From: an uncultured Gammaproteobacteria bacterium
Lineage (GTDB): Bacteria; Patescibacteriota; Microgenomatia; Levybacterales; UBA12049
Direction of reading: 5' to 3'
Length of the DNA stretch: 64,000 nt
Assembly: GCA_964507055.1 (NCBI GenBank)
Contig: CAZDOJ010000001.1
Span: 465,313-529,312, forward strand
Part shown: positions 1,976-41,984 of the stretch, in pieces
How positions within the stretch are numbered: the first letter of the stretch is position 1
Layout: every line of letters begins with the position of its first letter
Made by a program: the position numbers and the translations under genes
The notes under the pieces: generated by a model
What the model was told of the DNA's origin: nothing
The model's input: the letters and a program-made list of their open reading frames with translations, nothing else
Databases searched by the model: none

Positions 1976-3189
1976 ACATTTACAATGTCACGTATCACTT
2001 TCTCATATTTTTCAGGTCTATATAATTTGTCATAAAGTTTATATGCTTCCGCTGAAAGTTTTACTTTTAAAATACTATCTTTTTCTAATGTAGAGATACT
2101 TTTTATAAACTGATCAAATGTATCATATAAAAGTGCATTCTTTTTATGGGTAAGTACACTTTTAAATTCTCCATAGTTAGGCGCCACAATTGCTTTCTTT
2201 GCAGACATATAGTCAAATAATTTTGTCGGAAGAATAGATTCGGTCAGAGAATCCTGTTTCCATGGCACGATTCCTACATCAATAACTGGGATTACATTGT
2301 GGATATCTTTAACTCTCCCTGTAATAATAATAGCAGAATTACCCTTAGCTGATTTCTTTATTTCATCTAAGCCATCTCCCGCACCAACCAATAACAGCTT
2401 TGTATTAGGTATTCTTTCTTTCATTTTTTCAAAATTCTTAATTAGTTCGACCACTCCAATAAACGTATACTCGTAGGAAAAAGAACTAAAGCATCCAAGA
2501 ACGAAATCCTCTCTTGAAAGTCCAAGTTCTTTTCTTGTCTTTGCCATATTTTTAGAAGTATTTTTATTTTCTTCTACCGTATTGGGGATTACGTGAATCT
2601 TATTTCCCTTAACGCCTGTTCGAGAAACAATCTTATCTGCTTGACCACGACTTGTAACGATAATTTTTGTATATCTATTACATAAAAATTTTTCAAGCCC
2701 AATCTCTATTTTGTAAACAATGCTAGATTGATGTAGGCCTTTTATATGCTCAGCCAATTCAGGCTCTAGATCGTGGAATTCAAGGACATGAAGCTTAGTT
2801 TTGTTAACTTTGCTAAACATCCATGCAAAAAAAGGAACGGTTAAAGGGGATGTAACTACATAAAGCTTTTTCTCTTCTTTAATGTATCTTTGAAGCGTTT
2901 TATATAGAATAAGACATAGATTCATCATTAGTTCAAGATTTCTTTTGATCTCATAGAACCCCGTTAAATACTTTTTGGGACGTTCTACTAATTGGCTATT
3001 TGAATAGTATCTATAAATAGTAATTTCTCGATGAGGAGATTTATAGATCTGAATATCTTTTTTTTCATTTTCACCCCTGCAAACAATGACTACGGGCTCA
3101 TCTTTAGAAATTGCATCGATTTCGCGTTTACATCGAATGCCAAATCCTGAGTTGTCTGGGAAATACCCATTAAAAATATAAATTATCAT
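1972..3189 (-). CDS. Glycosyltransferase, GT-B fold (GT4-like)
   Basis: 405 aa ORF with a C-terminal GT-B donor-binding region (..TKLFDYMSAKKAIVAPNYGEF..). It overlaps its neighbours by 4 nt on each side in an operon of GTs. Confidence 0.75.
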   Translation of the reverse strand: MIIYIFNGYFPDNSGFGIRCKREIDAISKDEPVVIVCRGENEKKDIQIYKSPHREITIYRYYSNSQLVERPKKYLTGFYEIKRNLELMMNLCLILYKTLQRYIKEEKKLYVVTSPLTVPFFAWMFSKVNKTKLHVLEFHDLEPELAEHIKGLHQSSIVYKIEIGLEKFLCNRYTKIIVTSRGQADKIVSRTGVKGNKIHVIPNTVEENKNTSKNMAKTRKELGLSREDFVLGCFSSFSYEYTFIGVVELIKNFEKMKERIPNTKLLLVGAGDGLDEIKKSAKGNSAIIITGRVKDIHNVIPVIDVGIVPWKQDSLTESILPTKLFDYMSAKKAIVAPNYGEFKSVLTHKKNALLYDTFDQFIKSISTLEKDSILKVKLSAEAYKLYDKLYRPEKYEKVIRDIVNV

Positions 3190-4337
3190 AATAAATCTTT
3201 AATAAGCATATTTGTTTTCTTGACCTGTAAATCCCATGTAAACTTCTCTTTCACTTTCATATAGTTCCTCTCTCCCAATTGCCTAGATAAAGACGAATCT
3301 GAAAAAAGTGTCAATATTGCTTTTGAAAGAGATTGAGAATCTTTAGGATCTACAAGTATGCCATTGGTTTTATCTACAACATATGGTATTCCGCCTACTT
3401 TTGTTGCAATAACAGGTTTATGAGCCGCTCCTGCCTCTATAAGTACCATACCAAAACCCTCTGAATCATTTATACTAGGCAAAACCAGTGCTTCACTTAC
3501 TTTATAATACTGAATAAGTTGAGTGTCATTTACATTTGTTAAAAAGGTAACATTATTTGTAAGGCCCTTATCCAGAACAATTTTTTTATAATCGTCGATC
3601 ATATCACCTTTTCCAATAATAATTAGCTTTATTTCTTTTATTTCTTTTTTAATTAAAATAAGTGATTCTAATAGGTATTTTAGACCTTTATGCTTATATG
3701 TATGTTCAAGTTGTCCCACAAATAGAATAACTTTATATGGCGAAAAGCGTTTTTTTAATAATGTAGATACAGGTGTTAAGCGGTATTTTAATAGATCTAC
3801 TCCTGGAGAAATAACTATTGTTTTAGATAAAAATTTGCTAAGAATCTTTGATTTTTCTTTATAGAAATCAGATGTTACTACTACTTTCTGTGCTAGTTTT
3901 AACGTATTAATACCGGCTAATTTATAATATGTGCTTATGATTAGGTTTAGAACAAAAGTATTTTTAACTAAATCATTATGATAGGTCAAAATATAAGGTA
4001 TATTCTTTTTTTTAGCAATACTAGCACTTATATCTGATATAAATGGAACGGGTGTATGACCATTTATGATATCAGGCTTCTCCTTTTCTATAATATTACT
4101 AATACGTGTATGCCAATTAAACCCAATTGGTGTATTGGATAATTTTAGTGATGGTTTTAACTTATATATTTTGATTCCATCAATCTCTTCAGTAGTATCT
4201 TTAGAAAAAGGATTTGAAGCTATTATTACAACATCATGCAGATACATTTTTTTAAGTCCTAATGCAATATTCCAGACGTAATTTTCAACGCCTCCTTTTT
4301 TAGGGTATGTATATGGTGTAATAAACAATATTTTCAT
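3186..4337 (-). CDS. Glycosyltransferase family 4
   Basis: 383 aa with the classic GT4 EX7E motif (SEGFGMVLIEAGAAHKPVIATKVGGIPYVVD). Confidence 0.85.
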   Translation of the reverse strand: MKILFITPYTYPKKGGVENYVWNIALGLKKMYLHDVVIIASNPFSKDTTEEIDGIKIYKLKPSLKLSNTPIGFNWHTRISNIIEKEKPDIINGHTPVPFISDISASIAKKKNIPYILTYHNDLVKNTFVLNLIISTYYKLAGINTLKLAQKVVVTSDFYKEKSKILSKFLSKTIVISPGVDLLKYRLTPVSTLLKKRFSPYKVILFVGQLEHTYKHKGLKYLLESLILIKKEIKEIKLIIIGKGDMIDDYKKIVLDKGLTNNVTFLTNVNDTQLIQYYKVSEALVLPSINDSEGFGMVLIEAGAAHKPVIATKVGGIPYVVDKTNGILVDPKDSQSLSKAILTLFSDSSLSRQLGERNYMKVKEKFTWDLQVKKTNMLIKDLL

Positions 4338-4341
4338 ACTT

Positions 4342-5475
4342 TTAATCTTTTTTTAAATATATTTTTTCTAGTTGTTTAACATTCTCTTCCCAAGAAATAA
4401 AATACTTACTACTAAAAGCATGTGAGAAATTAGACATTCTTTCAAGTTCAATAGGACTTTTTAAATATTTATCAACCTTTTGTGTAATCTTTTCCGATGA
4501 ATAATCTAAAGTTACAATGTTTTTCTCACCTATAGAAGTAATGTAGTCGTTATCTTTACCTACAAATACTGGAAGTCCTGACAGCATGGCTTCTTGGACA
4601 GATAAGGGAAAACCTTCGCTATGAGAAGGAAGTATAAAAATATCACTTAATTGAAAATATTCTGCTAATTCTTCTTTATTTTTTCTTCCTAATATTCGAA
4701 TATTTTTATTAGTTTTATATACTTTGTCTTTTGTATCACCAATAAGAATAAGTAAAGCTTTCTCAAAATTAGTATTTAGTAATAGATTATATCCTTTTTT
4801 GGGGACAAACCTACCTACAAACAATACTATTGGGATATTAATAGATAGACCATATTTTTTTCGCAGTTTAAGCTTTACACTATTTGAAACATTATGAAAT
4901 AGTTTTTTTTCAATACCGTTGGGTAAATATTCTACTTTATTAAGATATGGTTTAAGTATGGGGGCTTTTTTAAATTCACTATTAATTACTAATATGCAAT
5001 TTGCTAGTTTAAGTATTATATTTCCAACTGTAAAACTTACAAACTTTTCTAAGTAATTGATTAATATGTTATTATAAAGTACATGAACAATATGAATGGT
5101 AACAAAAGACTTTTTTTTAAAAAGTCTCGCTAATAATGCTCCGACTAATGATGAGGGATAAAGAAAGTCATGTATGTGAATAACATCAGCATTTTTAATG
5201 GCTTTAATCGATTGTAAGTTAAAAAATATAACTGGTACCGGTACATGAAGTTTCTCTAGAAAGTCGAAGGCTGGTAATTTTATGTATGTTACCCCTTTAT
5301 AAACAAACTTACTTTTATCCTTTGGTAAATTGCTACTAATTAACGTAACATTATGACCTTGTTTTACAAGTTCTTCTGCTTGATTTTTAGCTACATTACC
5401 AATACCACTCCCTTTGTATGGATACGTATATGACACTAAAATCACAATATTAATGCTTTTGAAGCTTTTAATCAT
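4342..5475 (-). CDS. Glycosyltransferase family 4
   Basis: 377 aa with the motif SHSEGFPLSVQEAMLSGLPVFVGK. Confidence 0.85.
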   Translation of the reverse strand: MIKSFKSINIVILVSYTYPYKGSGIGNVAKNQAEELVKQGHNVTLISSNLPKDKSKFVYKGVTYIKLPAFDFLEKLHVPVPVIFFNLQSIKAIKNADVIHIHDFLYPSSLVGALLARLFKKKSFVTIHIVHVLYNNILINYLEKFVSFTVGNIILKLANCILVINSEFKKAPILKPYLNKVEYLPNGIEKKLFHNVSNSVKLKLRKKYGLSINIPIVLFVGRFVPKKGYNLLLNTNFEKALLILIGDTKDKVYKTNKNIRILGRKNKEELAEYFQLSDIFILPSHSEGFPLSVQEAMLSGLPVFVGKDNDYITSIGEKNIVTLDYSSEKITQKVDKYLKSPIELERMSNFSHAFSSKYFISWEENVKQLEKIYLKKD

Positions 5476-5486
5476 AATAACGGGGA

Positions 5487-6239
5487 TTACGCTGAGCTTT
5501 TAGCTCCTAAGCCTGGACTTACGTTCTGCTGTTCAGGCTTCCAGGACAGATTCCTGAAAAATGTGGACAGAATTTTTAAGCCATCTGAGACAGAATCAAT
5601 CTTTGATTCCCCTTCTCGTTGTTCATACGTAATCGGTACAGAATAGATTTCCTGTTTTAATTTTACCATTTTTGTAATCATTTCCATCTCAATAGCAAAA
5701 CCTCTGGATTCAAGGTGCGGAAGTAATTCGCGTAAAGACTTATGTTTCCAAGCAAAAAAACCACTCAATACATCAGTAACATTAGCACGATATATCTGCC
5801 GTACTATAAATGTGAATACCCAATTAGCAAGTCTATTACTAAAGCGAAGGGAACCATGTTTTATTTTTCCTCCAAGGCGACTTCCTACAACAACATCACA
5901 GAAATTACTTGCAAGTGGTTCGACTAGACGTGGTATTTCTTTTCCTTTGTATGTATTGTCCCCATCAAGCATTATTACGTAGTCTGTATCGGGCTTTACT
6001 GCGTTCATACCTGTGCGTATGGCATGGCCTTTTCCAACTTTTTCTTCACATATTACTCTTGCATTCTTTGATTCAGCAATGGCCTTAGTTTTATCAGTAC
6101 AATTATTATCAATAACAATAATATCTGTGTTGTATCCCTGACGACGAAGTTTGACAACCGGTATAGAATCAATAACCTTTCCTATACCTTTTTCTTCATT
6201 ATAACAAGGAATTAACACTGTGATTTTTTTTAATCTCAT
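5487..6239 (-). CDS. GT2 polyprenyl-phosphate glycosyltransferase (DPM1/GtrB-like)
   Basis: 250 aa. N-terminus VLIPCYNEEKGI, VIDNNCTDKT, and the DXD-type MLDGDNTY motif. Confidence 0.85.
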   Translation of the reverse strand: MRLKKITVLIPCYNEEKGIGKVIDSIPVVKLRRQGYNTDIIVIDNNCTDKTKAIAESKNARVICEEKVGKGHAIRTGMNAVKPDTDYVIMLDGDNTYKGKEIPRLVEPLASNFCDVVVGSRLGGKIKHGSLRFSNRLANWVFTFIVRQIYRANVTDVLSGFFAWKHKSLRELLPHLESRGFAIEMEMITKMVKLKQEIYSVPITYEQREGESKIDSVSDGLKILSTFFRNLSWKPEQQNVSPGLGAKSSA

Positions 6240-16958: not shown

Positions 16959-18233
16959 TTACTGATCTAACCACTCTGATTTTAATTTATGGAAATTTCC
17001 ATTGCCAATTGCTTCTCGGATCTGCGTCATTAATGATGTAACGAAAAAAAGGTTGTGGTAGGTTGCTAATTGTAATCCCAATAGTTCATTTGCTGCAAAA
17101 AGATGATGGATATATGCTCGTGTAAAGTTCTGACAGACATAACATGTGCATCCAGGATCAATTGGTTGCGGATCAGTTTGGAATCGTTTATTAGTAAAAT
17201 GAAAGACGAAATTGTTCTCTTTGCGTCCACCATTCTTTGGATGAATGAATAAACTCGCATGGCGTGCTCGTCTTGTCGGAGCAACACAATCAAAGAAATC
17301 CATCCCACGAGAAACTGCTTCAAATATATCTTCAATTTCACCTATCCCAAGTAAATGCCGCGGCTTCTCTTCATCAAAGTGAGGGATACAAGCATCGATC
17401 ATTTGTAACAAAACTGCTTTTGAAGTATATGAACCACCGATAGAAAGGGCGTCAAAGTATTTGTTGGTAAACTTTGCAGAAAATTGTCGAAGTTCATCGT
17501 AATGTCCTCCATGAACGATACCATACATTAATTGATCTTTTCTTTTCTGTGCTTGAAGACTTCTAATACCCCATCGACTCGTTCGTTCAAGAGATAATTT
17601 GGTCGTTTCATAATCCCAAAGTGGTGATTCATGATCATCAAATGCCACGATCAAATCTGCTCCTAAAGCTTCCTGAATTGCGATAGACTTTTCCGAATCA
17701 AACCATCTTTTCTCACCATTCAAATGAGAGAAAAACCATACTCCATCATCGTTTACTAGTGCACTTTTTAATTTCTTTTTTTGTCGATCTTCTGTAGTTT
17801 TTGTAACTGCAGGAAGAAGGTTTTGGGTTTCTGCAGGATTGATGAATACTGACTTACTAAATTTATTGAGCTTTTTGCCACCCACCGTTTTTATCTCAAC
17901 CTTTTTCTGGGCAACACCTAATGAAAATACTTGATATCCTCCACTGTCTGTCATCGTTGGTCCTTCCCATCCCATGAACTTTCCGAGCCCTCCCATTTTT
18001 TTGACGACTTCTTCGCCAGGACGAAGATGTAAATGATACGTATTTGACAGTACGATTTGTGCACCAATATCATGAAGTGCTTGTGGCGTTATTCCTTTGA
18101 CGCTTGCCAATGTACCAACTGGAACAAAGGTAGGTGTAAGAATTTCCCCATGAGGAGTTTTAAGCTTTCCCAATCGAGCATTGTTTTTTTTATCCTTTTG
18201 AAGAACGGTAAATTTAAATGATTTTGAACTCAT
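16959..18233 (-). CDS. tgt: Queuine tRNA-ribosyltransferase (tRNA-guanine transglycosylase)
   Basis: LTPTFVPVGT, DCVAPTRRARHASLF, and the zinc site CTCYVCQNFTRAYIHHL. Start moved to MSSKSF. It carries an internal insertion of about 60 aa relative to typical Tgt. Confidence 0.85.
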   Translation of the reverse strand: MSSKSFKFTVLQKDKKNNARLGKLKTPHGEILTPTFVPVGTLASVKGITPQALHDIGAQIVLSNTYHLHLRPGEEVVKKMGGLGKFMGWEGPTMTDSGGYQVFSLGVAQKKVEIKTVGGKKLNKFSKSVFINPAETQNLLPAVTKTTEDRQKKKLKSALVNDDGVWFFSHLNGEKRWFDSEKSIAIQEALGADLIVAFDDHESPLWDYETTKLSLERTSRWGIRSLQAQKRKDQLMYGIVHGGHYDELRQFSAKFTNKYFDALSIGGSYTSKAVLLQMIDACIPHFDEEKPRHLLGIGEIEDIFEAVSRGMDFFDCVAPTRRARHASLFIHPKNGGRKENNFVFHFTNKRFQTDPQPIDPGCTCYVCQNFTRAYIHHLFAANELLGLQLATYHNLFFVTSLMTQIREAIGNGNFHKLKSEWLDQ

Positions 18234-18297
18234 CTGAACCAAACAAGTATACCATATAGTTGGAAAAGGAAGCCAAGCTGGTGTATAATCGTTACTT

Positions 18298-18990
18298 ATG
18301 CCAGTTAAAGCATCACAGAAAAAATTTAGATACCTTGATATCATTACAGCTTTCTTCGTATCGATACTTATTATTTCCAATGTAGCATCAACGAAGATTA
18401 CAAGCATCGGACCAATAACGCTTGATGCAGGAACCATTCTTTTTCCTCTTAGTTATATATTTGGAGATATCCTCACAGAAGTGTATGGCTATAGTAGAGC
18501 AAGAAGAGTCATTTGGATTGGCCTACTTTGTAACATTCTTATGGCAGTGACATTTATGCTCGTGCAACTATTACCTCCATCACCAGATTGGCCAAATCAA
18601 CATGCATATGAGGTAATTCTTGGATTAACACCAAGAATCGTTCTTGCGAGTATCACTGCGTATTTTGTCGGCGAGTTTATTAACTCGTTTATTCTTGCCA
18701 AACTCAAAGTCGCAACGAAAGGGAAAAAGCTCTGGTTACGTACTATTGGCTCAACTGTTATTGGACAATTACTCGATACCTTAGTTTTTGTATTTATTGC
18801 TTTCTGGGGAGTATTACCAACAAATGTACTTATTGCACTCATTGTTTCTAATTATGTTATAAAGCTGGCATTTGAAGTTCTCTTTACACCGGTAACATAC
18901 TGGGTAACAAATAAGCTGAAACAGGCTGAAAATGAAGATTATTACGATAAGAAAACTAACTTTAACCCGTTTGCGATAAAATCAAAATAA
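18298..18990 (+). CDS. yhhQ: Queuosine-precursor transporter YhhQ (VUT family, DUF165)
   Basis: 230 aa with the signature LFPLSYIFGDILTEVYGYSRARRVIWIG. Divergent from tgt. TATAAT lies 8 nt before the ATG. Confidence 0.8.
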   Translation: MPVKASQKKFRYLDIITAFFVSILIISNVASTKITSIGPITLDAGTILFPLSYIFGDILTEVYGYSRARRVIWIGLLCNILMAVTFMLVQLLPPSPDWPNQHAYEVILGLTPRIVLASITAYFVGEFINSFILAKLKVATKGKKLWLRTIGSTVIGQLLDTLVFVFIAFWGVLPTNVLIALIVSNYVIKLAFEVLFTPVTYWVTNKLKQAENEDYYDKKTNFNPFAIKSK

Positions 18991-28757: not shown

Positions 28758-28889
28758 CTAATTATTGTACACCCATTGTTGAGATGATACAATCAGATTT
28801 TCGTTTTGCCTATGGATATGGGATAAATGTCTTACTAAGTTCTTACTGATTATTTATCGAAAATAATAAGAACATTAAGTATTATATAT

Positions 28890-29052
28890 CTAATCATCCC
28901 AAAACGAAGGAGGGCGTAGTAGTCAGGAGCTCTAGCGAAACAAAATCCAACGTAGCGGGATGATTGTTATATCTATTTCTTCATAATAGATCAATAAACT
29001 ATTTATTTCAGTAAGCTATATTACAACTCTTGCATAGAGTTGTTTTTTGTTT
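28890..29052 (+). ncRNA. Candidate small structured RNA ending in an orphan intrinsic terminator
   Basis: 9-10 bp long-range stem (ATCATCCC / GGGATGAT) enclosing about 56 nt, then hairpin ACAACTCT-TGCAT-AGAGTTGT plus TTTTT at 29023-29048. No plus-strand CDS lies upstream. The next promoter (TTGACA-17-TATTAT at 29071-29099) is downstream of the terminator. Confidence 0.25.
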
Positions 29053-29115
29053 TAATTTTTAGTCCTATAGTTGACATCTGTGCGTAAATTTGTTATTATT
29101 TATGCACGAAAAATT

Positions 29116-30357
29116 ATGGTCATTTCAAATCTGACATACTCAAATACTGCAAAAACAGCTACATTATCAGCTGATATTAATTTTCGCGGTAAAAAAGCAG
29201 AACGAGCATATATCACCACCGATAAAAAGTATGAGCGATTTATCGTAAAAGACTATACTTCCTTCTTGGCTGCTGTACTCCTCCCTTGTATGAAAACAGG
29301 TGAGAATATTTATGTCGACGGTCCAGTTTCAGAACAATTCCTCGCAAACACCAACGAAATCATGAAACTCCTTATCAAATGGCAAGTTGGGCTTTCTCGC
29401 ATTAAAATCCGTGTGAAAGAAACAACAGTCGATACTTTCAAACCACGATACACAGGAAGTTTCTTCACTGCGGGAGTTGATTCATTTTATACATACTTAA
29501 GAAATAAAAATAAGAAAACGACAAAGATATCGCATCTCATTATCGTCCATGGATTTGATGTACCACTTTCGAATAAACCTTTCTTTAATAAAGTAAAAAC
29601 CACAGTTGAAAAAGTAGCTGCAGAAGAAAAAGTGCACGCAGTGGTCCTTGAGACAAACTTAGGCGAGATTATTGAGAAGCGATTAGTTTGGGATTTTGCA
29701 CATGGTGGAGCACTCGCAGCTGTAGCACTTTTCCTAAGAAAGCAGATGAAAAATATGCTTATCCCGGGAGCTGTTAGAAACGATCAACTTTTCCCATATG
29801 GAACCCATCCAGAATTGGATGTACTTTGGTCCACTGAAACGCTAAAGGTTAAAAGTGATGGTGGAGAACATGACAGAATGGGCAAAGTAACAAGTCTTGT
29901 GAGTAAGTCTCCTTTAGCACTTAAGTATTTGCGTGTGTGTACACAAAATCTTGAAGGTAAATATAATTGTTCACGATGTTATAAATGTTTGATGACAATG
30001 ATCTATCTGGCGGGATCAAATGCATTATCTCAATCAAAAACTTTTGAGAGGAAAATCAATATTGAGGCTGTACGAAGGATGTACTATGACTACAAACTGA
30101 AGTATAATATACAAGGCGAGCAAGCACTTGCACTTCTCAAACAAAAGAAGATAAGCCCTGCATTGCAGGAGGCAATTGCTTACAGTCTCGAAAAGAGTAA
30201 AAAGCCGCAACTTGTAAAAAGAGTTTACCAAACCGTTGCTGCTTTTGATCAAAAATATAATAACCGACGTTTGTATCAATTTGTTTTCAAAATGAATGAT
30301 AAAAACGATCGCAATTTTATTTTTAAATTTTTATTTAAGAAAGGAATTTTAAAATGA
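29116..30357 (+). CDS. QueC-like PP-loop ATP pyrophosphatase with N- and C-terminal extensions, function unknown
   Basis: PP-loop-like FTAGVDSF. About 165 aa later, a Cys cluster C-x10-C-x2-C-x2-C (RVCTQNLEGKYNCSRCYKC), matching the spacing of the QueC zinc site. Start moved to MVISNL because a promoter lies inside the longer ORF. Confidence 0.45.
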   Translation: MVISNLTYSNTAKTATLSADINFRGKKAERAYITTDKKYERFIVKDYTSFLAAVLLPCMKTGENIYVDGPVSEQFLANTNEIMKLLIKWQVGLSRIKIRVKETTVDTFKPRYTGSFFTAGVDSFYTYLRNKNKKTTKISHLIIVHGFDVPLSNKPFFNKVKTTVEKVAAEEKVHAVVLETNLGEIIEKRLVWDFAHGGALAAVALFLRKQMKNMLIPGAVRNDQLFPYGTHPELDVLWSTETLKVKSDGGEHDRMGKVTSLVSKSPLALKYLRVCTQNLEGKYNCSRCYKCLMTMIYLAGSNALSQSKTFERKINIEAVRRMYYDYKLKYNIQGEQALALLKQKKISPALQEAIAYSLEKSKKPQLVKRVYQTVAAFDQKYNNRRLYQFVFKMNDKNDRNFIFKFLFKKGILK

Positions 30358-30896
30358 CACCTGAATTAATAGCGATACTTACACTTGGAATTATCATTAT
30401 CAAAGTAATTTGGATTCGTACAGAAATTAAATTCTCCAAAGAGCGAATTAACTTTGACATGATCAAAACAAATTTTGTTGAAGCAGCAATTCTTGCTCTC
30501 CAAATTCTTGCAGCAGTATTCATGCCAATTCCCCAAACACCATTCTCTTTCCTTATCACGTGGGCTGGTGTAGCAATGTATGTTGGCGGTTTCGTCCTTG
30601 CTCTTTGGGCAAGAAAAGTTATGAGCAAATCATGGGGCGTTCCTGGAGAACATCATAAAAAACAGGACAAACTTGTGACGGATGGACCTTTTGGTTTTTC
30701 AAGAAATCCAATTTATCTTGCATTCATGATGCTTTATTTTGGTTTTGCAATTGCCATCCAAAGCTGGCTTATCATTTTGAGAATCCCACTTGCTATTTAT
30801 TTCTACAAATCAGCAATCCGTGAGGAAAAGAACCTTGAAAAGATATTTGGAAAAGAATACACAGACTACAAAAAAAGAGTCCCAAGATTCATCTAA
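30354..30896 (+). CDS. ICMT/PEMT-family membrane carboxyl/phospholipid methyltransferase
   Basis: 180 aa, multi-TM, with the motif TDGPFGFSRNPIYLAF. ATGA overlap with the QueC-like gene. Confidence 0.7.
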   Translation: MTPELIAILTLGIIIIKVIWIRTEIKFSKERINFDMIKTNFVEAAILALQILAAVFMPIPQTPFSFLITWAGVAMYVGGFVLALWARKVMSKSWGVPGEHHKKQDKLVTDGPFGFSRNPIYLAFMMLYFGFAIAIQSWLIILRIPLAIYFYKSAIREEKNLEKIFGKEYTDYKKRVPRFI

Positions 30897-31034: not shown

Positions 31035-32369
31035 TTATTTCTTCCCTAATTTTTGAACAGCAATAAGTGGCAAAGCCAACGCATACAGTGCAGCATCCAA
31101 CCCAATCTTTTTAGACCTCTTTAATTGTCTTTGGTACAATGCATATGCCTCATGATATTCTAAGTCGCCATGTGCAATAAGAACATATAAAGGCGGTTGC
31201 CAGTACTTTGGGAAAAGCATGTGGAGTAATGTATCAGCTTTATCTTTCAAAACAAAAAACGGTGACCGACTCTTATCACGAAGTTCGATGAAATTCTCTT
31301 TCGCCAGATCCGCCATCAGGTCAGTATTTCGCTTGCGATTTTCCTGATACAAAGGAAATACTTTCTTTAAATCACCATCAAACTTGTCATATAATTCCGT
31401 AAACTTTAAACAATCATCAAATGCTGCACACATCCCCTGTCCATAAAAAGGAATAAAAGCATGAGCTGCATCACCAACCAAAAAGACAAAATCTTCATCA
31501 TGCCATGTAGGATTATGCAAAGTAACAAAAGTTCCAGTTTTTCTCTTTAAAAAGGCATCTGTAATTTCAGAAAGTAATGGCAGGAGATCAGGAAAATCAG
31601 ATTTTACAAACTTTTCAATCTTTTCAGGTGTAGTGAGTTGTGCAAAACTCTTTTCGCCTTCAAGTTGGAGATTGAACATCAGTGTGAAAGAATCGTCTGG
31701 ATTTGGGAAAGCAATTAAAAGCGAATCTGGTCTTGGCCATGTGTGAGTCGCACGAAGTCGGAGTTTCATTTCTTCGGTTAACTTTGGAGAAATATGTACT
31801 TCCTTATATCCCCAATCTTCAAATTCTTTTTCTCCATGATCCTTTTTATCTGATGATACATAAGATCTAATGACAGAATTAACCCCATCCGCTCCGATAA
31901 CTAAATCTGTTTTGACAGTAGTCTCTTTTTCGGAAGTTTTCTCCAAACGAATTTCTTTCTTCGTACTATCAACTGCTACACACTTTGTATTAAAGTGAAA
32001 TGTAATTTCAGGATATTTCTCAGCAGCAGATATAAGTGCACCATTTAATCTATTTCTATGAACTGTGTAAAGGATTTCATTTCCTCTTGCATCGAAAGAG
32101 TCATACACATTTTTTGTTTCGTAATGAGCGACATTCCCTTCGGCGATGATTGCAACATTTTTTGCGTCATCCCATATACCAATTTGTTTCATCGCTTCAA
32201 TTCCACGATAGTACAATGTTAAATTGAATGAACGACCAGAATCATAATTCTCTTCTCGAACATCAGGGCGATATTCATACACATCCACCTCATAATTCCT
32301 TTTGGCAAGACAGATCGCCATAAAACATCCCGCCATCCCAGCTCCAATAATTGAAACCTTTTTCTTCAT
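31035..32369 (-). CDS. FAD-dependent aromatic-ring monooxygenase, kynurenine 3-monooxygenase-like
   Basis: VSIIGAGMAGC (GxGxxG), DGVNSVIR, GDAAHAFIPFYGQGMCAAFDD. Confidence 0.75.
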   Translation of the reverse strand: MKKKVSIIGAGMAGCFMAICLAKRNYEVDVYEYRPDVREENYDSGRSFNLTLYYRGIEAMKQIGIWDDAKNVAIIAEGNVAHYETKNVYDSFDARGNEILYTVHRNRLNGALISAAEKYPEITFHFNTKCVAVDSTKKEIRLEKTSEKETTVKTDLVIGADGVNSVIRSYVSSDKKDHGEKEFEDWGYKEVHISPKLTEEMKLRLRATHTWPRPDSLLIAFPNPDDSFTLMFNLQLEGEKSFAQLTTPEKIEKFVKSDFPDLLPLLSEITDAFLKRKTGTFVTLHNPTWHDEDFVFLVGDAAHAFIPFYGQGMCAAFDDCLKFTELYDKFDGDLKKVFPLYQENRKRNTDLMADLAKENFIELRDKSRSPFFVLKDKADTLLHMLFPKYWQPPLYVLIAHGDLEYHEAYALYQRQLKRSKKIGLDAALYALALPLIAVQKLGKK

Positions 32370-33415: not shown

Positions 33416-34240
33416 ATGGCACTTAATCCTGAAACACAACATCATGAAAGAAGAGACAAACAAAAAACAAGAGCTCTTGTAGTCTACAATAAATTAGAAG
33501 TAGTTAATTCTCATTCATCTCCAAACGATCAATGGCTCGGTTTAGCAAGGACCGCTGTAGGCGAAGGCTATGTTCCCTATTACCATAAGTATATCCGTAC
33601 AGAACGTGAGAAACGTACAAAAGGAAAGACAGTGAGTGCTGAATTAATTGGTAAATATGCTAGTGAAGCGTCGCATTTAATGTACGATGACTCTTATGGA
33701 CAAGGCGGTAGGTCAGAAACGATATGTGTTTTTGACAAAAGTGAAGTAAATGGAAAACATCTTGCAGGGACTGGTCGGTTAGTCTTTGGAGAAGAATATC
33801 CAACAGAAGTTATGCGTCCACTAGAGCTTATAGAACTTGTAGAACCTCGCATTGGATGGGATGAAGTACTTCAAGGAAAGCCTTTAAGTAAAGTTGCTGA
33901 ACTTGGAAGAATCGTTGTCCCAAAACAATATAGAGGAATCATTGAAAAAGATGGCGAAAAAAAAGACCAGACACAGCTAATAGCACATAGTCTTATTGAT
34001 GGTCAAAACGGAGTTGTTGAAGTAGCTCAGGATCACGACAGAGAAATAGTATTAATGGTCGCACAACGAAAGTTTGCAAGACATGCAGAAGGTACGCAAC
34101 TTGACTTTGGTGAGGGAATACCGATAGAATTACTCCCTGCAGCGAAAAGAGTTGTTAAAAAAATATTCCCTGGATACTGGAAGGATGAGGTTGATCCACC
34201 CAAACTATACGTTGCCCAAGTCCCGCCTAAAGTAGCATAA
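33416..34240 (+). CDS. Hypothetical protein, possibly an acyltransferase of the autoinducer-synthase / N-acyl-amino-acid-synthase GNAT-like fold
   Basis: 274 aa. ELGRIVVPKQYRG resembles the E-L-S-R-F-A-V block. Leaderless-type promoter TTGCAC..TATAAT upstream. 2-nt gap to the E1-like gene. Confidence 0.35.
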   Translation: MALNPETQHHERRDKQKTRALVVYNKLEVVNSHSSPNDQWLGLARTAVGEGYVPYYHKYIRTEREKRTKGKTVSAELIGKYASEASHLMYDDSYGQGGRSETICVFDKSEVNGKHLAGTGRLVFGEEYPTEVMRPLELIELVEPRIGWDEVLQGKPLSKVAELGRIVVPKQYRGIIEKDGEKKDQTQLIAHSLIDGQNGVVEVAQDHDREIVLMVAQRKFARHAEGTQLDFGEGIPIELLPAAKRVVKKIFPGYWKDEVDPPKLYVAQVPPKVA

Positions 34241-34242
34241 TT

Positions 34243-35493
34243 ATGGAAAGACCACGACATTTACATTTAGTAGGACGCCCATCAGAAAGATATATTGCTG
34301 CACGTGAAACTGATAGAGGTCGAGAGACAGAAGTACCCCAAGTTAAAATTTATAATCCAAATGTTGAAGAAGATCGTAGAGGTCTTATGCATTCGATTCT
34401 TACACTCCCTGAGAGAACACAGAGAAGACCATGGAAAGCAGATGTAAATGATCCGGAAGCCGTTTTTAATGAAGCTGTTGAGGAAGGAGTTTTCATTGAT
34501 AGATTTCCTGAATATCTTGAGGATAAAGCGAAGAGAAAGAAAGGAAAAGCACACTTTGATAAATATATTGGTCAGGACCCAGAACATCCTAAAGAATCAT
34601 ATCTTATGAACCGTTATAAAAGTTTTAATGATACTTGGGAAAATTCTCGAGTTGTTGAGTTTACTTGGGAAGAAGGAATAAAGCGTTATGAGAGAATTCC
34701 TGTTGAAGAAGAATATCATTGGCTCGTACATTTAAGTGATTCTATAATTATTCCGGACGAAGCACGAGAAGCACTCCCTAAAAAAAGAATTGCGTTTGCC
34801 GGTGCAGGTGTTGGAAGTTCACTTATCGAGGGTGCCGTACGTGCAGGTGCAAAAAACATTACTGTCGCAGATGGTGGAGCAATACTCTATCATGACTTAA
34901 ATCGCTTACAAGCACCCGATATTACAACTGTGGGAGATAATCATGCAGCGGATGCAATTAAAAAAGCTTATAAAGCAAATCCATATATAGATGCACAATG
35001 TTATACACAAAATATTACCCCTGATGGGAAAAATGGGACTGTTTCAATTGATACATTCCTTAATGGATCAGATATTGTTTTTGAGGAGATCGATAATCTT
35101 CAAATGAAGATATTGATTCGTGAAGCAGCACTTGCCCGTGGCATTCCAGTCATTATGGCAACCGATGTTGGTATGGGAACGATTATTGATTATCAACATC
35201 TTAAACCTGGTGACTCAACTGATTTGATTTTCCCTGGTCTAACTCGTGATGAATACAATAGAATTAAAAGTGGGGAGAGATTAACCTTTGAAGAGTCTAC
35301 AGATTTTGCAGTAAAGATGGTTGGTGAAGAAGTAAGTTATTGGAGAGATGGTGTGGAAAATGGATTACATTTCTGGTCTCAGACGGGAGCATCAGCAGAT
35401 GCTTCCAAATCCAAAGCTGCTCATACTTTGGCAAAATGGTCTATGGGCCAAGAAATCCCTCCAAGACAAGTATACCTTGAACCTGCAGCATAG
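34243..35493 (+). CDS. E1-like (ThiF/MoeB/UBA-type) adenylyltransferase with a novel charged N-terminal domain of about 180 aa
   Basis: RIAFAGAGVGSSLIEGAVRAGAKNITVADGGAILYHDLNRLQ (GxGxxG ... NLNRQ-like), then ..SDIVFEEIDNL..IPVIMATDVGMGTII.. No CxxC zinc motif. Confidence 0.65.
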   Translation: MERPRHLHLVGRPSERYIAARETDRGRETEVPQVKIYNPNVEEDRRGLMHSILTLPERTQRRPWKADVNDPEAVFNEAVEEGVFIDRFPEYLEDKAKRKKGKAHFDKYIGQDPEHPKESYLMNRYKSFNDTWENSRVVEFTWEEGIKRYERIPVEEEYHWLVHLSDSIIIPDEAREALPKKRIAFAGAGVGSSLIEGAVRAGAKNITVADGGAILYHDLNRLQAPDITTVGDNHAADAIKKAYKANPYIDAQCYTQNITPDGKNGTVSIDTFLNGSDIVFEEIDNLQMKILIREAALARGIPVIMATDVGMGTIIDYQHLKPGDSTDLIFPGLTRDEYNRIKSGERLTFEESTDFAVKMVGEEVSYWRDGVENGLHFWSQTGASADASKSKAAHTLAKWSMGQEIPPRQVYLEPAA

Positions 35494-38941: not shown

Positions 38942-39175
38942 ATGTATTATTCACACCCTTGTTCATATTGCGGAAAGATATTCTACACATATAACAGTGA
39001 CCGAAGCAAGGCTGCAGAAACCCTCTACTATGGAATAAAAAAACATCTTGTAGATTATGGTGAAGACGCGAAAGAGCATGAGCTTGACGATGGTCCTTCA
39101 ATGGATGTTGCACAGATAGATGCATCGATGACCGAATTAGCTGCTGCTCCAGCTGGCGGATACGAACTCAAATAG
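38942..39175 (+). CDS. Small hypothetical protein with an N-terminal CxxC
   Basis: 77 aa. Its 3' end overlaps the convergent GT1 gene by 8 nt. Confidence 0.3.
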   Translation: MYYSHPCSYCGKIFYTYNSDRSKAAETLYYGIKKHLVDYGEDAKEHELDDGPSMDVAQIDASMTELAAAPAGGYELK

Positions 39176-40379
39176 CAGCATGCTGTTTTCTTTGAGTAGA
39201 TTCATACGCAATTAAAATCTCTGCAGCCTTTTTATAACCTCCACCTTTATATTGAGTCTTGGCGATTGCTGTCGCATTGGATTTATAGGTACTATCTTGT
39301 AAAACCTTTTGGGTAAAGGCATGCAGTTGGTCAGGAGTGACTTTATCTTTCTTAAGAAATATTCCTGCACCAAGTTGTGCAACTCGATGTGCATTGAGTT
39401 GTTGTTCAGCCGTAAAAGGTACCAGAAGCATAGGCACACTGTTATACAGTGCTTCGGTAATACTATTCATTCCCGCATGCGTGATAAAAACATCTGCCTT
39501 CTTTAACACTTCTAATTGGGGAATATGATTTTTGATAATAAAGTTCGAAGGAACTGCCAATAAATCTTTCTTTGTAAACGTATTTCCTAATGACATGATT
39601 ACTTGATACGGTTTATCTGCGAAGGCATGAATACATTTGTGGTAGAAGTTCAAATCTTGGTTGAAGATTGTACCCGTTGATATATAGATAATCTTTTTTT
39701 GTTTATTTAATTTTTCTATAAAATCTGTTTTTTCATTTCTGGTTTGTATCGATGATCCAACAAAATGAAATGACGCGTCAAATGAAGTGACATATGGTTG
39801 GAAATATGAAGATGTAAAAACGATATTACAGGCTTCTTCATTGCATAAAAATTCATTAACCGATCGAGCTTTAAACCCATATATTCGTGCAAGCTTACGG
39901 TATTTATGCATTGTCTTTACGAGAGTACTTCCAGTTAAAAGTGAGCCGAGTAAAGCTTTGGTGTAGACACGAGTATTGCTCATGATAACTCGCTTATTAA
40001 ATGCAAGCGTTGTATAAAAAGTCGCTGCAGGTATAGATAATGCTGTACTTACTACCTTGCCCCACAATGCAACCGCATCATAAATAATACAATCAACCTG
40101 TTGATCTTTTACTTCATCGATAAGCTGATCTACTAATTGTTCTGTAAAATCAACGATTTTCTCCCCAAGCAAAGCCATATTGCGACTTATTCGAGCATCG
40201 ACAAATTCATCGACTGGATAAGAACGATATATTGCTCCTGCTGCTTTCACTTTTGCTTCAAACTCTGGTGTGGAATAATAAATAACTTTATGACCTTTTG
40301 CCACGAGCTCAGCTGCGACACTAAGTGTCGGATTGGTATGACCATGTGCAGGAAGAGAAAATATTATAAATATTTTCAT
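39168..40379 (-). CDS. UDP-glycosyltransferase, GT1 (MGT / OleD-like)
   Basis: N-terminal HGHTNP, and a C-terminal ITHAGMNSITEALYNSVPMLLVPFTAEQQLNA. Confidence 0.8.
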   Translation of the reverse strand: MKIFIIFSLPAHGHTNPTLSVAAELVAKGHKVIYYSTPEFEAKVKAAGAIYRSYPVDEFVDARISRNMALLGEKIVDFTEQLVDQLIDEVKDQQVDCIIYDAVALWGKVVSTALSIPAATFYTTLAFNKRVIMSNTRVYTKALLGSLLTGSTLVKTMHKYRKLARIYGFKARSVNEFLCNEEACNIVFTSSYFQPYVTSFDASFHFVGSSIQTRNEKTDFIEKLNKQKKIIYISTGTIFNQDLNFYHKCIHAFADKPYQVIMSLGNTFTKKDLLAVPSNFIIKNHIPQLEVLKKADVFITHAGMNSITEALYNSVPMLLVPFTAEQQLNAHRVAQLGAGIFLKKDKVTPDQLHAFTQKVLQDSTYKSNATAIAKTQYKGGGYKKAAEILIAYESTQRKQHAAI

Positions 40380-40396
40380 TTCTTTAACATTATAGC

Positions 40397-40681
40397 TTAT
40401 TCTCGCTCAACAGTAATTGTACATTCGACAACTAATGCTGCGATTGCTGCTACTCCTGCCAAAACCGGTGCGATTGCGACTCCAACGACACCAAGAGTTA
40501 ATGGGAAAACGACAAGCACTTTTCCATTTTTATCTTTGATAGTTATTTTACGAATATTGCCTTCTTTAATAAGTTCTTTTACCTTTTTGAGGAGGTTTTC
40601 TCCATTAACTTCAAATGACTCTTCCTTTTTTGATTTATCCTTATTTTCTGTTTTTGCTTTTGCAACTGGCATAGATATCAC
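40397..40681 (-). CDS. DUF4342-domain protein
   Basis: ..LLKKVKELIKEGNIRKITIKDKNGKVLVVFPLTLGVVGVAIAPVLA.. Confidence 0.55.
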   Translation of the reverse strand: MISMPVAKAKTENKDKSKKEESFEVNGENLLKKVKELIKEGNIRKITIKDKNGKVLVVFPLTLGVVGVAIAPVLAGVAAIAALVVECTITVERE

Positions 40682-40766
40682 CCCCTCTCAGACATCTATT
40701 GTATCACTCATTTGTTGAAAAATTGTTATTCTCATCCATGTATCGTATAATAGTTAAGCCCATATT

Positions 40767-41984
40767 GTGAAAATCGGAATATTTACAGATGCTTATTTGC
40801 CATTACCAACAGGTGTAGCAACCGCTGTTGATAGAACTGCTCGTGCTCTAGAGAAAAGAGGACATGAAGTTACTATTATTGCTCCAAGCATGCCAGGTTA
40901 TATAGATACTGATAATCATATCTATAGACTTCCTTCAGTCAGATTTTTATCTACAGGTTCAAGAGCCGGTATACATGTTCCTAATAAAACTTTTTTACAA
41001 ATCCTCAATAAAGATTTCGATATTGTTCATGCCTACAATGGAGGCTCGGTAAGTCTTCTTGCATGGGAAATTGCCAAGGCAAAACGAATTCCATATGTAT
41101 TTACGTATTGTACGCTGCTTGTGCAATATAAACATTATTTAGGACAATGGTTGGGTAATGAAGCCTTTATGCGTATGCTCAGTAGAGTTATCTGTAATTA
41201 CAGTGACTATCTTATTGTTCCAACAGAAGCTGTGAAGCACGAACTCATAGAATATGGCGTTACCAAACCTATGCATGCACATCCAACAGGAATTGAACTG
41301 AATCTTTATAAAGGGAGGAAAAAAGGTTGGATTAGAAAACAGCTAGATTTAGAAAAAGATACAAAAATACTTCTTCATGTTGGAAGACTTGGGAAAGAAA
41401 AAGCAATTGATTTTATCATCGACGCATTTGGAGAAATTCAAAAAAAAGTCTCTAATAGTGTGCTTGTTTTGGTGGGAGAAGGAACTGATAAAGATTTATT
41501 ACAAGATCAAATTGATAACGCAGGGCTTCATGACAAAGTTCACTTCCTTGGAGTCTTTCCTCCAGAAGAATTACCAAATATTTATACCGATGCTGATCTT
41601 TTCTTATTTGCTTCACAAACAGAAACACAAGGCCTAGTAATCCTGGAATCACTTGCGTCTTCACTCCCAATAGTCGCCGTGCAAGACAAAGTATTTAATG
41701 GCATTCTTGTTGATGGAAAAAATAGTTATTTAGTAAAAAAAGATGTGAAGCAATACACAGCAAAAGTAGTAAAGCTCCTTACTGATGAAAAGCTCCGGCA
41801 AGAATTTGCAGACCAGAGCTTGCAATCAGCACAACAATTTTCGATTGAAAAAACGGCAATTGAATTAGAAACGATTTTTGAAGAACTTATTAAACAATTT
41901 GAAACTACCCCACCGAGTTACAGAAGAAGATATCTTAATAAATTTCAAAACCTCATGAAGCCATTTTTATTAGCGAGAAAATAA
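40767..41984 (+). CDS. Glycosyltransferase family 4
   Basis: GTG start 9 nt after TATAAT (TTGTTA-17-TATAAT). EX7E motif ASQTETQGLVILESLASSLPIVA. Confidence 0.8.
   Translation: MKIGIFTDAYLPLPTGVATAVDRTARALEKRGHEVTIIAPSMPGYIDTDNHIYRLPSVRFLSTGSRAGIHVPNKTFLQILNKDFDIVHAYNGGSVSLLAWEIAKAKRIPYVFTYCTLLVQYKHYLGQWLGNEAFMRMLSRVICNYSDYLIVPTEAVKHELIEYGVTKPMHAHPTGIELNLYKGRKKGWIRKQLDLEKDTKILLHVGRLGKEKAIDFIIDAFGEIQKKVSNSVLVLVGEGTDKDLLQDQIDNAGLHDKVHFLGVFPPEELPNIYTDADLFLFASQTETQGLVILESLASSLPIVAVQDKVFNGILVDGKNSYLVKKDVKQYTAKVVKLLTDEKLRQEFADQSLQSAQQFSIEKTAIELETIFEELIKQFETTPPSYRRRYLNKFQNLMKPFLLARK

Follow-up and report, generated by a model that had tools for sequence, protein, structure and literature searches.

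Enzymes of the PP-loop superfamily (QueC, NAD synthetase, Asn synthetase, GMP synthetase, LarE, TilS and NASAT) adenylate a carboxyl or carbonyl oxygen, after which AMP is displaced by a nitrogen or sulfur nucleophile, and recent work has found the QueC scaffold put to use in phage defence as well, for the deazaguanylation of proteins. NASAT (WbpG/WbuX/LpNASAT, PDB 8WEX) is a PP-loop and Zn-Cys4 enzyme of about 380 aa from polysaccharide loci; its PP-loop, of the SGGxDSxY type, stands near residue 122, and the presumed reaction is an ATP-dependent amidation of a sugar carbonyl (PMC13329287, PMC10607449). In the present work, a 64-kb stretch of DNA from a Levybacteria genome (contig CAZDOJ010000001.1, positions 465,313 to 529,312; 64,000 nucleotides, hereafter the window) was analyzed with respect to two overlapping genes of the plus strand. 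Gene A (29116-30357) codes for a soluble, PP-loop ATP pyrophosphatase-like protein with a predicted QueC fold and a Cys4 cluster, and gene B (30354-30896) for a 180-aa integral-membrane S-adenosylmethionine (SAM) methyltransferase of the PEMT/ICMT superfamily (PF04191). Both open reading frames (ORFs) are present as a previous sequence-only reading of the locus had described them. Our comparisons suggest that protein A belongs to a large family of glycan-associated proteins and that it most likely modifies cell-surface sugars, rather than acting in queuosine synthesis or in phage defence.

The AlphaFold2 model of protein A, built on a 48-sequence alignment, reached a mean predicted local distance difference test (pLDDT) score of 92. 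In a Foldseek search with the full-length model, the sole significant match was QatC (9y01_B; E 5e-6, TM 0.42), aligned over the full length, and QueC, Cap9 and QatC were the top structural matches. The core is a Rossmann-like alpha/beta/alpha fold in which the PP-loop follows the first strand and precedes the first helix, as in the PP-loop superfamily, and the three-dimensional fold of QueC could be recognised. As modelled, protein A has the PP-loop and zinc-cluster architecture of QueC, extended at both termini, in agreement with the sequence-only reading, which had proposed such a fold. The N-terminal domain (residues 1-111; 29116-29448, plus strand) consists of a three-stranded meander, helices and two more strands. 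It is conserved across the family and, modelled alone (pLDDT 93.6), gave no match to the PDB in Foldseek at E<=0.001, QatC not being among the 50 matches listed. The C-terminal extension (approximately residues 300-413; 30013-30354, plus strand) is helical in the model, and no transmembrane segment is predicted in the protein.

The PP-loop block FFTAGVDSFYTY (residues 116-127; 29461-29496, plus strand) contains the sequence T118-A-G-V-D-S123, a pyrophosphate-binding loop of the SGGxDS type which has the canonical form SGGVDS in many homologs. The Cys4 cluster C275-x9-C285-x2-C288-x2-C291 (29938-29988, plus strand) occupies a QueC-like position and is a putative structural zinc site, zinc binding being proposed by analogy with QueC and QatC (PMC13329287, PMC13279940). 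The cluster predicted by the sequence-only reading is thus present, with nine residues instead of the ten stated between the first two cysteines (eight in QueC), and the PP-loop lies 152-157 residues before C275, not about 165. Among 196 diverse family members, G120, D122, S123, C275, N284 and C285 are invariant (100%) and C288 and C291 are 99% conserved. In the numbering of the window protein, the conserved positions of these members are F116, F117, G120, V121, D122, S123, F124, Y125, G146, D148, T180, N181, W192, G197, G229, D235, W238, G249, R254, K257, L272, R273, V274, C275, Y283, N284, C285, C288, K290, C291 and T294. In place of the QueC signatures, the motifs HGFD, ETN and YGxHP...D..WS are typical of the family. 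With conservation of 99-100% across 196 members, the motifs lie far beyond chance, and the pattern appears to be that of an enzyme active site together with a structural Cys4 site.

Sequence searches gave a different picture from that of the structure. Against PF06508, no match was obtained for the window protein at E<=1 or for 48 homologs at E<=0.1. The NCBIfam and PADLOC scans of protein A were likewise without match, and phmmer and profile searches of PDB sequences retrieved no relative, only spurious RING and VHS matches. With E. coli QueC, hhalign gave a probability of 1.5%, the alignment being confined to an 11-residue PP-loop (SGGQDS in QueC). The Pfam family DUF6395 was matched below threshold over the Cys cluster and the C-terminal helices (E 0.005) and weakly in 10 of the 48 members.

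A profile search of 1.84 billion representatives retrieved 8,621 proteins at E<=1e-3, of which 3,098 at E<=1e-30, each protein representing a cluster at 50% identity. Scanning one genome per species yielded 552 family loci, distributed over the candidate phyla radiation (CPR), Actinomycetota, Planctomycetota, Acidobacteriota, Cyanobacteriota, Campylobacterota and Pseudomonadota including Alphaproteobacteria; a Halobacterium plasmid was matched in a separate plasmid search. The members are named 'hypothetical' in every source examined, and no Pfam or NCBIfam model was matched above its cut-off. Two adjacent copies stand in tandem in a Saccharibacteria locus (L029, 8001-10667). Six proteins of 550-830 aa (P0122, P0133, P0180, P0217, P0228 and P0253) match the profile in two separate stretches and contain extra regions without Pfam match, possibly by internal duplication or through further uncharacterised fusion partners.

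The gene context was analyzed in 83 non-redundant loci, in which ORFs were called and neighbours classified: 11 in which A is linked to a PEMT gene and 72 others. In these 72 loci, 101 genes immediately flank A, and polysaccharide pyruvyl transferase (PF04230) accounts for 30 of them. Wzx-type flippases (Polysacc_synt, 7 genes; Polysacc_synt_3, 5 genes), GT2 glycosyltransferases (6), DegT aminotransferases (3) and Asn synthases (3) were also found, together with sugar epimerases and dehydratases. The gap between the pyruvyl transferase gene and A is often 0 nt or negative (overlap). Fusions also occur: P0174 and P0171 join A to PS_pyruv_trans, P0189 joins it to GT2 and P0220 to a class I SAM methyltransferase. 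The same context is seen close to the window protein: P0075 (49% identical to it) lies in an operon GT4/PS_pyruv_trans/A/GT2, P0097 (45%) in a glycosyltransferase/pyruvyl-transferase operon and P0092 (44%) in the order GT4/DegT/A. For P0119 (39%), the immediate neighbours are without glycan-family Pfam match, and a glycosyltransferase/pyruvyl-transferase fusion gene is located about 4.5 kb upstream of A. In RefSeq, a pyruvyl transferase paired with a 'hypothetical protein' was found in two cultured bacteria, on a megaplasmid of Azospirillum brasilense and on a plasmid of Gemmobacter aquarius. The A homolog of A. brasilense is WP_247896056.1, and the pyruvyl transferase beside it is WP_137142849.1. 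On the Gemmobacter plasmid (NZ_CP028919.1; locus L098, 8214-10414), the A homolog is divergent from the pyruvyl transferase and is followed by an ATP-grasp protein, a GNAT acetyltransferase and then GDP-mannose pathway genes; this locus could serve as a tractable model. From gene context, polysaccharide pyruvyl transferase in glycan-biosynthesis loci appears to be the ancestral and predominant partner of the A family.

In the window, A is followed by a different partner. The gene B product matches PF04191 (PEMT) with 58.5 bits (E 1e-15, cut-off 25), whereas it remains below the cut-offs of ICMT PF04140 (20.5 bits, cut-off 24) and of the isoprenylcysteine methyltransferase equivalog NF040696 (50.4 bits, cut-off 160). 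It is polytopic, with about 4-5 hydrophobic segments, contains the motifs GPFGFSRNPIY (residues 111-121) and REEKNLEKIFGKEYTDYKKRVPRF (residues 156-179), and belongs to a tight 180-aa subfamily of Levybacteria that is set apart from generic 145-aa PEMTs by a wide gap in score. The membrane methyltransferase announced by the sequence-only reading is therefore confirmed at the superfamily level, as is the stop/start overlap. The sequence ATGA at 30354-30357 is shared by the gene A stop and the gene B start and, within the end of gene A, is preceded by the Shine-Dalgarno-like AAGGA at 30341-30345, so that the junction (30341-30357, plus strand) is compatible with translational coupling.

A PEMT gene adjoins A in 11 loci, the window and ten species-level relatives (A proteins 47-88% identical), all from Levybacteria, and is always directly downstream of A on the same strand. 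The 4-nt overlap (-3) was found in 8 of the 11 loci, i.e. in 7 of the 10 besides the window. Overlap and gene order hold in this clade while the upstream genes change and a rhomboid gene lies anywhere between 1.9 and 5.8 kb away. A broader PEMT hidden Markov model (HMM) detected no PEMT-family gene within 8 kb of A in any of the 72 other loci. Conservation of the pair as neighbours, named as a check by the sequence-only reading, is thus observed in one Levybacteria clade but not beyond it, and each partner also occurs alone. In a neighbour-joining tree, the 11 PEMT-linked A proteins form a single clade nested among glycan-linked members, and because of this nesting the PEMT pairing is a derived, lineage-specific rewiring of a glycan-associated enzyme. 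Within the core, the PP-loop change G119A and the Cys-cluster change G286S are the only consistent differences of the clade, and all catalytic-looking residues are kept.

On the basis of PP-loop chemistry and family gene context, we tentatively propose, as a plausible reading still short of a probable one, that A is an amidotransferase-like enzyme which modifies, by way of adenylation, a carboxyl or carbonyl group of a glycan or of the envelope, and which in Levybacteria was recruited next to a membrane methyltransferase. By analogy with the superfamily, A would most likely bind ATP and transfer its AMP moiety to a substrate oxygen of carboxyl or carbonyl type, releasing pyrophosphate; a nitrogen nucleophile, for instance ammonia or an amine, would then take the place of AMP. 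The product would be an amide, a QueC-like conversion to a nitrile being a possible alternative. The gene contexts suggest as substrate a sugar-borne acid group on a membrane-anchored (polyprenol- or lipid-linked) glycan precursor, and a candidate group is the free carboxylate of the pyruvate ketal made by the usual partner, the pyruvyl transferase. In one clade of Levybacteria, the gene would have left the pyruvyl-transferase operon and become translationally coupled to the PEMT/ICMT-type methyltransferase, and this methyltransferase would act on the same membrane-bound envelope glycoconjugate, either at the group just introduced or at a different position.

Several glycosyltransferase genes are located at 39168-41984 and 1972-6239 of the window, including a macrolide-family glycosyltransferase (TIGR01426, 369 bits) and a GT4 resembling monoglucosyl-diacylglycerol synthase (E 1e-59, below cut-off); the run of glycosyltransferase-like ORFs at 2-6 kb was assigned by eye from sequence. 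These enzymes are possible sources of an envelope glycoconjugate modified by A and PEMT.

A number of observations weigh against this glycan-tailoring proposal. About two thirds of the family loci are without adjacent pyruvyl transferase according to the HMM used, and the 64-kb window contains neither a pyruvyl transferase nor a second copy of A, so that the substrate in Levybacteria may differ. In 86% of the 196 family members and in the deeper members of the PEMT-linked clade, residue 247 (29854-29856) is His; the window protein and its closest relatives have Ser there. In locus L096, an A homolog (48% identity) abuts the flavin monooxygenase gene with no PEMT between, and PEMT-subfamily members at 54% and 41% identity occur without A; since A without PEMT and PEMT without A both exist, a coupling through a shared substrate is not obligatory. 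Enzymes of the PEMT family are known with O, N, S and phosphate as targets, and the acceptor of gene B may be of any of these kinds. Finally, no literature on the family was found, DUF6395 and the combination of PP-loop and pyruvyl transferase included, and no pyruvate ketal carrying an amide or another derivatisation turned up in the literature searched. As a separate observation on the methyltransferase, the PEMT gene at 54% identity (L092, 2697-6248, contig Ga0209726_10000237), of the same subfamily and without adjacent A, adjoins a Vut_1/YhhQ-family transporter gene and is divergent from an ATPgrasp_ST and 7TM_transglut pair.

The conserved pairing could also be explained in other ways. 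The sequence-only reading had proposed a dedicated two-step system in which a carboxylate, belonging to a protein C-terminus, a lipid or a small molecule, is first adenylated by A and then converted to its methyl ester by the ICMT-like enzyme. The QueC-like fold of A, the superfamily of its partner and the conserved 4-nt overlap are compatible with this model, as is the fusion of a different SAM methyltransferase to the A homolog P0220. SAM-dependent O-methylation of a carboxylate, however, needs no ATP activation, which makes the adenylate-then-methylate logic chemically redundant; to our knowledge, in all PP-loop enzymes characterised so far it is an N or S nucleophile that consumes the acyl-adenylate, and adenylation followed by methylation is without precedent in the superfamily. 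In addition, the ICMT Pfam and NCBIfam equivalog matches are below cut-off, the partners are separable, the restriction of the pair to 11 species-level loci of one clade does not fit a general two-component system, and the family context points to glycan modification and not to a protein C-terminus. We consider this model very unlikely. Another explanation is adjacency without functional coupling, A keeping its ancestral glycan role and PEMT being an unrelated housekeeping membrane methyltransferase, packed against it in the compact genome of a CPR bacterium. Gene overlaps are frequent when genomes are small, both partners are also found separately and the pairing is confined to one clade; but the overlap and the order of the two genes are maintained as the identity of A falls from 88% to 47% and the flanking synteny breaks down, and A was independently fused to another methyltransferase. 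Such an uncoupled arrangement appears to us rather unlikely, without being far-fetched.

The third gene of the region opens a further possibility. A class A flavin monooxygenase of the kynurenine 3-monooxygenase/VioC type (31035-32369, minus strand; 32% identical to insect kynurenine 3-monooxygenase) is the convergent neighbour of gene B, and a three-gene small-molecule module, in which the flavin hydroxylase, the methyltransferase and the adenylating enzyme would hydroxylate, methylate and amidate an aromatic or lipidic metabolite, would account for its position directly downstream in all 11 clade loci, where upstream genes and rhomboid distance vary, and for its adjacency to A even without PEMT in L096. 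Being convergent, the gene is not co-transcribed with the pair; in a related genome where A lies in a glycosyltransferase/pyruvyl-transferase operon, it is found about 10 kb away, near an ancestral methyltransferase/AI-2E block that flanks A in other Levybacteria, and the linkage is absent from the rest of the family. Owing to this orientation and this separate location, its membership in an operon was down-weighted; the adjacency may be plain synteny, and the module is distinctly improbable. A deazapurine function as in QueC, Cap9 or QatC has also been considered, with 7-carboxy-7-deazaguanine or salvaged preQ0-derived material as the compound that A would activate and attach to a protein or other acceptor, maybe as a defence or salvage accessory. 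QatC, QueC and Cap9 are indeed the closest structures, the extensions resemble those of QatC (PMC13279940), tgt and yhhQ lie 11 kb upstream and a PEMT-subfamily member adjoins a Vut_1/YhhQ-family gene. Against it stand the missing PF06508 match and the 1.5% hhalign probability with E. coli QueC, and the motifs Y-x-Q-x-H-x-x-E, VP-x-RN and YPDC of QueC and Cap9 are absent, as are those of QatC (motifs from PMC13329287). The N-terminal domain is without QatC match, PADLOC was negative and the family-wide linkage is to glycan genes. No QatA, QatB, QatD, CD-NTase or partner with an N-terminal Gly was seen among the neighbours examined, PEMT beginning with MTPE and the monooxygenase with MKKK. The analogy with Qat- or CBASS-type defence hinted at by the sequence-only reading is thus not sustained, and a deazapurine substrate seems to us highly improbable.

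Upstream of the pair, a near-consensus promoter-like site (TTGACA-17 nt-(TG)TATTAT, 29071-29099, plus strand; 11 of 12 matches, extended -10 TG) stands directly 5' of gene A, and its TTGACA hexamer is kept in L010, one of the closest relatives. The TTG at 29071, given as an alternative start of a 428-aa product in the sequence-only reading, falls in the -35 hexamer, and the 120 homologs listed are about 408-435 aa long, mostly 412; for these two reasons, the true start should be the ATG at 29116, with a product of 413 aa. Just 5' of this promoter, a terminator-like hairpin followed by a T-run (29023-29053, plus strand) is shared by L010 and not by L012, and it is not preceded by any protein gene on the plus strand. 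Further upstream, an intergenic element (28826-28984, plus strand; core approximately 28893-28965) is strongly conserved as ATCATCCC...GGGATGAT, with a 7-bp closing stem followed by a T-rich run and with the invariant internal blocks GAGCTCTAGCGAAAC and AATCCAA. By nhmmer, it recurs in five other Levybacteria loci; two of these have it about 4 kb away from gene A, so that it is independent of gene A. It gave no Rfam match at E<=1 and no ARAGORN match, and its RNAalifold consensus fold is weak; a tRNA or a riboswitch was rejected on these grounds. The element may be an unannotated small RNA, which the hairpin could terminate.

Elsewhere in the window, tgt (16962-18437, minus strand; TIGR00430, 414 bits) and yhhQ (18298-18987, plus strand; TIGR00697), coding for a queuosine-precursor transporter, were both found as announced by the sequence-only reading; they are divergent and their maximal ORFs overlap. 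No queC, queD, queE or queF was recognised among the ORFs examined, the window having been only partly scanned against Pfam. Judging from these genes, queuosine is salvaged in this organism. At 33416-35493 (plus strand), a 274-aa protein without family match is followed after 2 nt by a 416-aa ThiF/E1-like adenylyltransferase (PF00899, E 1.5e-18), which also gave weak matches to 'E1-E2' in PADLOC and to the Rv1355c family and 6A-MBL cap2_3 in NCBIfam. This pair is conserved in the closest relatives L010 and L012 and may be a ubiquitin-like conjugation or defence-type module. The A protein of L010 (OZ246394.1) is 88% identical to that of the window and has the same synteny. L010, L013, L023 and L031 have a near-identical Levybacteria/CPR gene content in records titled 'uncultured Gammaproteobacteria' or 'Pseudomonadales', and these public titles look like taxonomic mislabels.

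In its widest form, which we regard as speculative and rather doubtful, the glycan-tailoring proposal would make the A family a new class of ATP-dependent enzymes that act with pyruvyl transferases and convert the carboxylate of the pyruvate ketal, or another sugar carboxylate, to an amide or a nitrile, and that Levybacteria rewired to a dedicated membrane methyltransferase, decorating the envelope of ultra-small CPR cells. If so, it would be a so far undescribed modification switching the surface charge of pyruvylated glycans, which would alter charge, phage receptors and immune recognition, and thousands of 'hypothetical proteins', including those of tractable bacteria such as Azospirillum brasilense, Gemmobacter and Priestia, would gain a name and a testable function. 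The locus points to a further, much larger and wholly unannotated branch of QueC-fold PP-loop enzymes with an N-terminal domain of its own, and the A-PEMT pair of Levybacteria is a candidate module for remodelling the envelope, in organisms about whose surface chemistry hardly anything is known.

Compared with described systems, the closest folds in the model are those of QueC and Cap9 for the core and of QatC over the full length. The SGGxDS PP-loop of QueC is matched by A (TAGVDS; SGGVDS in many homologs). At the place of the QueC zinc motif C-x8-C-x2-C-x2-C, A has the variant C-x9-C-x2-C-x2-C, a putative metal site conserved to 99-100%; in contrast to the PP-loop agreement, the two proteins share 11% identity, differ in length (about 220 aa for QueC, 413 aa for A), and none of the three QueC signature patterns YxQxHxxE, VPxRN and YPDC (PMC13329287) is found in A. 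A queuosine QueC was ruled out by the lack of a PF06508 match, the missing substrate motifs and the absence of que genes nearby, neither queD/queE nor other que genes being found among the neighbours in the loci examined and the window holding the salvage genes tgt and yhhQ; the expectation of the sequence-only reading that A is not a de novo QueC is in agreement with this. QatC (PDB 9Y01 chain B) and A both contain a QueC core with N- and C-terminal extensions, are about 410-430 aa long and have lost the deazaguanine-binding residues of QueC. The QatC motifs D-x4-R-x7-WxR and C-x19-CGxCxxRR are absent from A, and the QatABCD operon (QatA KAP NTPase, QatB with its Gly N-terminus, QatD TatD) is unlike the neighbours of A (PEMT, flavin monooxygenase, rhomboid and 2-hydroxyacid dehydrogenase). 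A QatC was rejected on the absent motifs and a defence protein on PADLOC and gene context, no Qat partner being seen among the neighbours examined, and an equivalence of the N-terminal extension with the parallel-sheet extension of QatC was rejected since the model of residues 1-111 is without significant PDB match. Like members of the ICMT/PEMT superfamily (Ste14/ICMT, PmtA-type PEMT, LmtA, MddA), the gene B product is polytopic and has the C-terminal R-x-P-x-Y and EE-x-x-L-x-x-x-FG-x-x-Y SAM-binding region, as read by eye; it remains below the cut-off of each of the isoprenylcysteine methyltransferase, LmtA and MddA equivalogs. NASAT differs from A by its profile (TIGR03573 type) and by the N-terminal CxxC...CxxC before its PP-loop, but the position of the PP-loop and the x-Y that follows it are alike in both proteins, and NASAT is the closest functional analogue of A.

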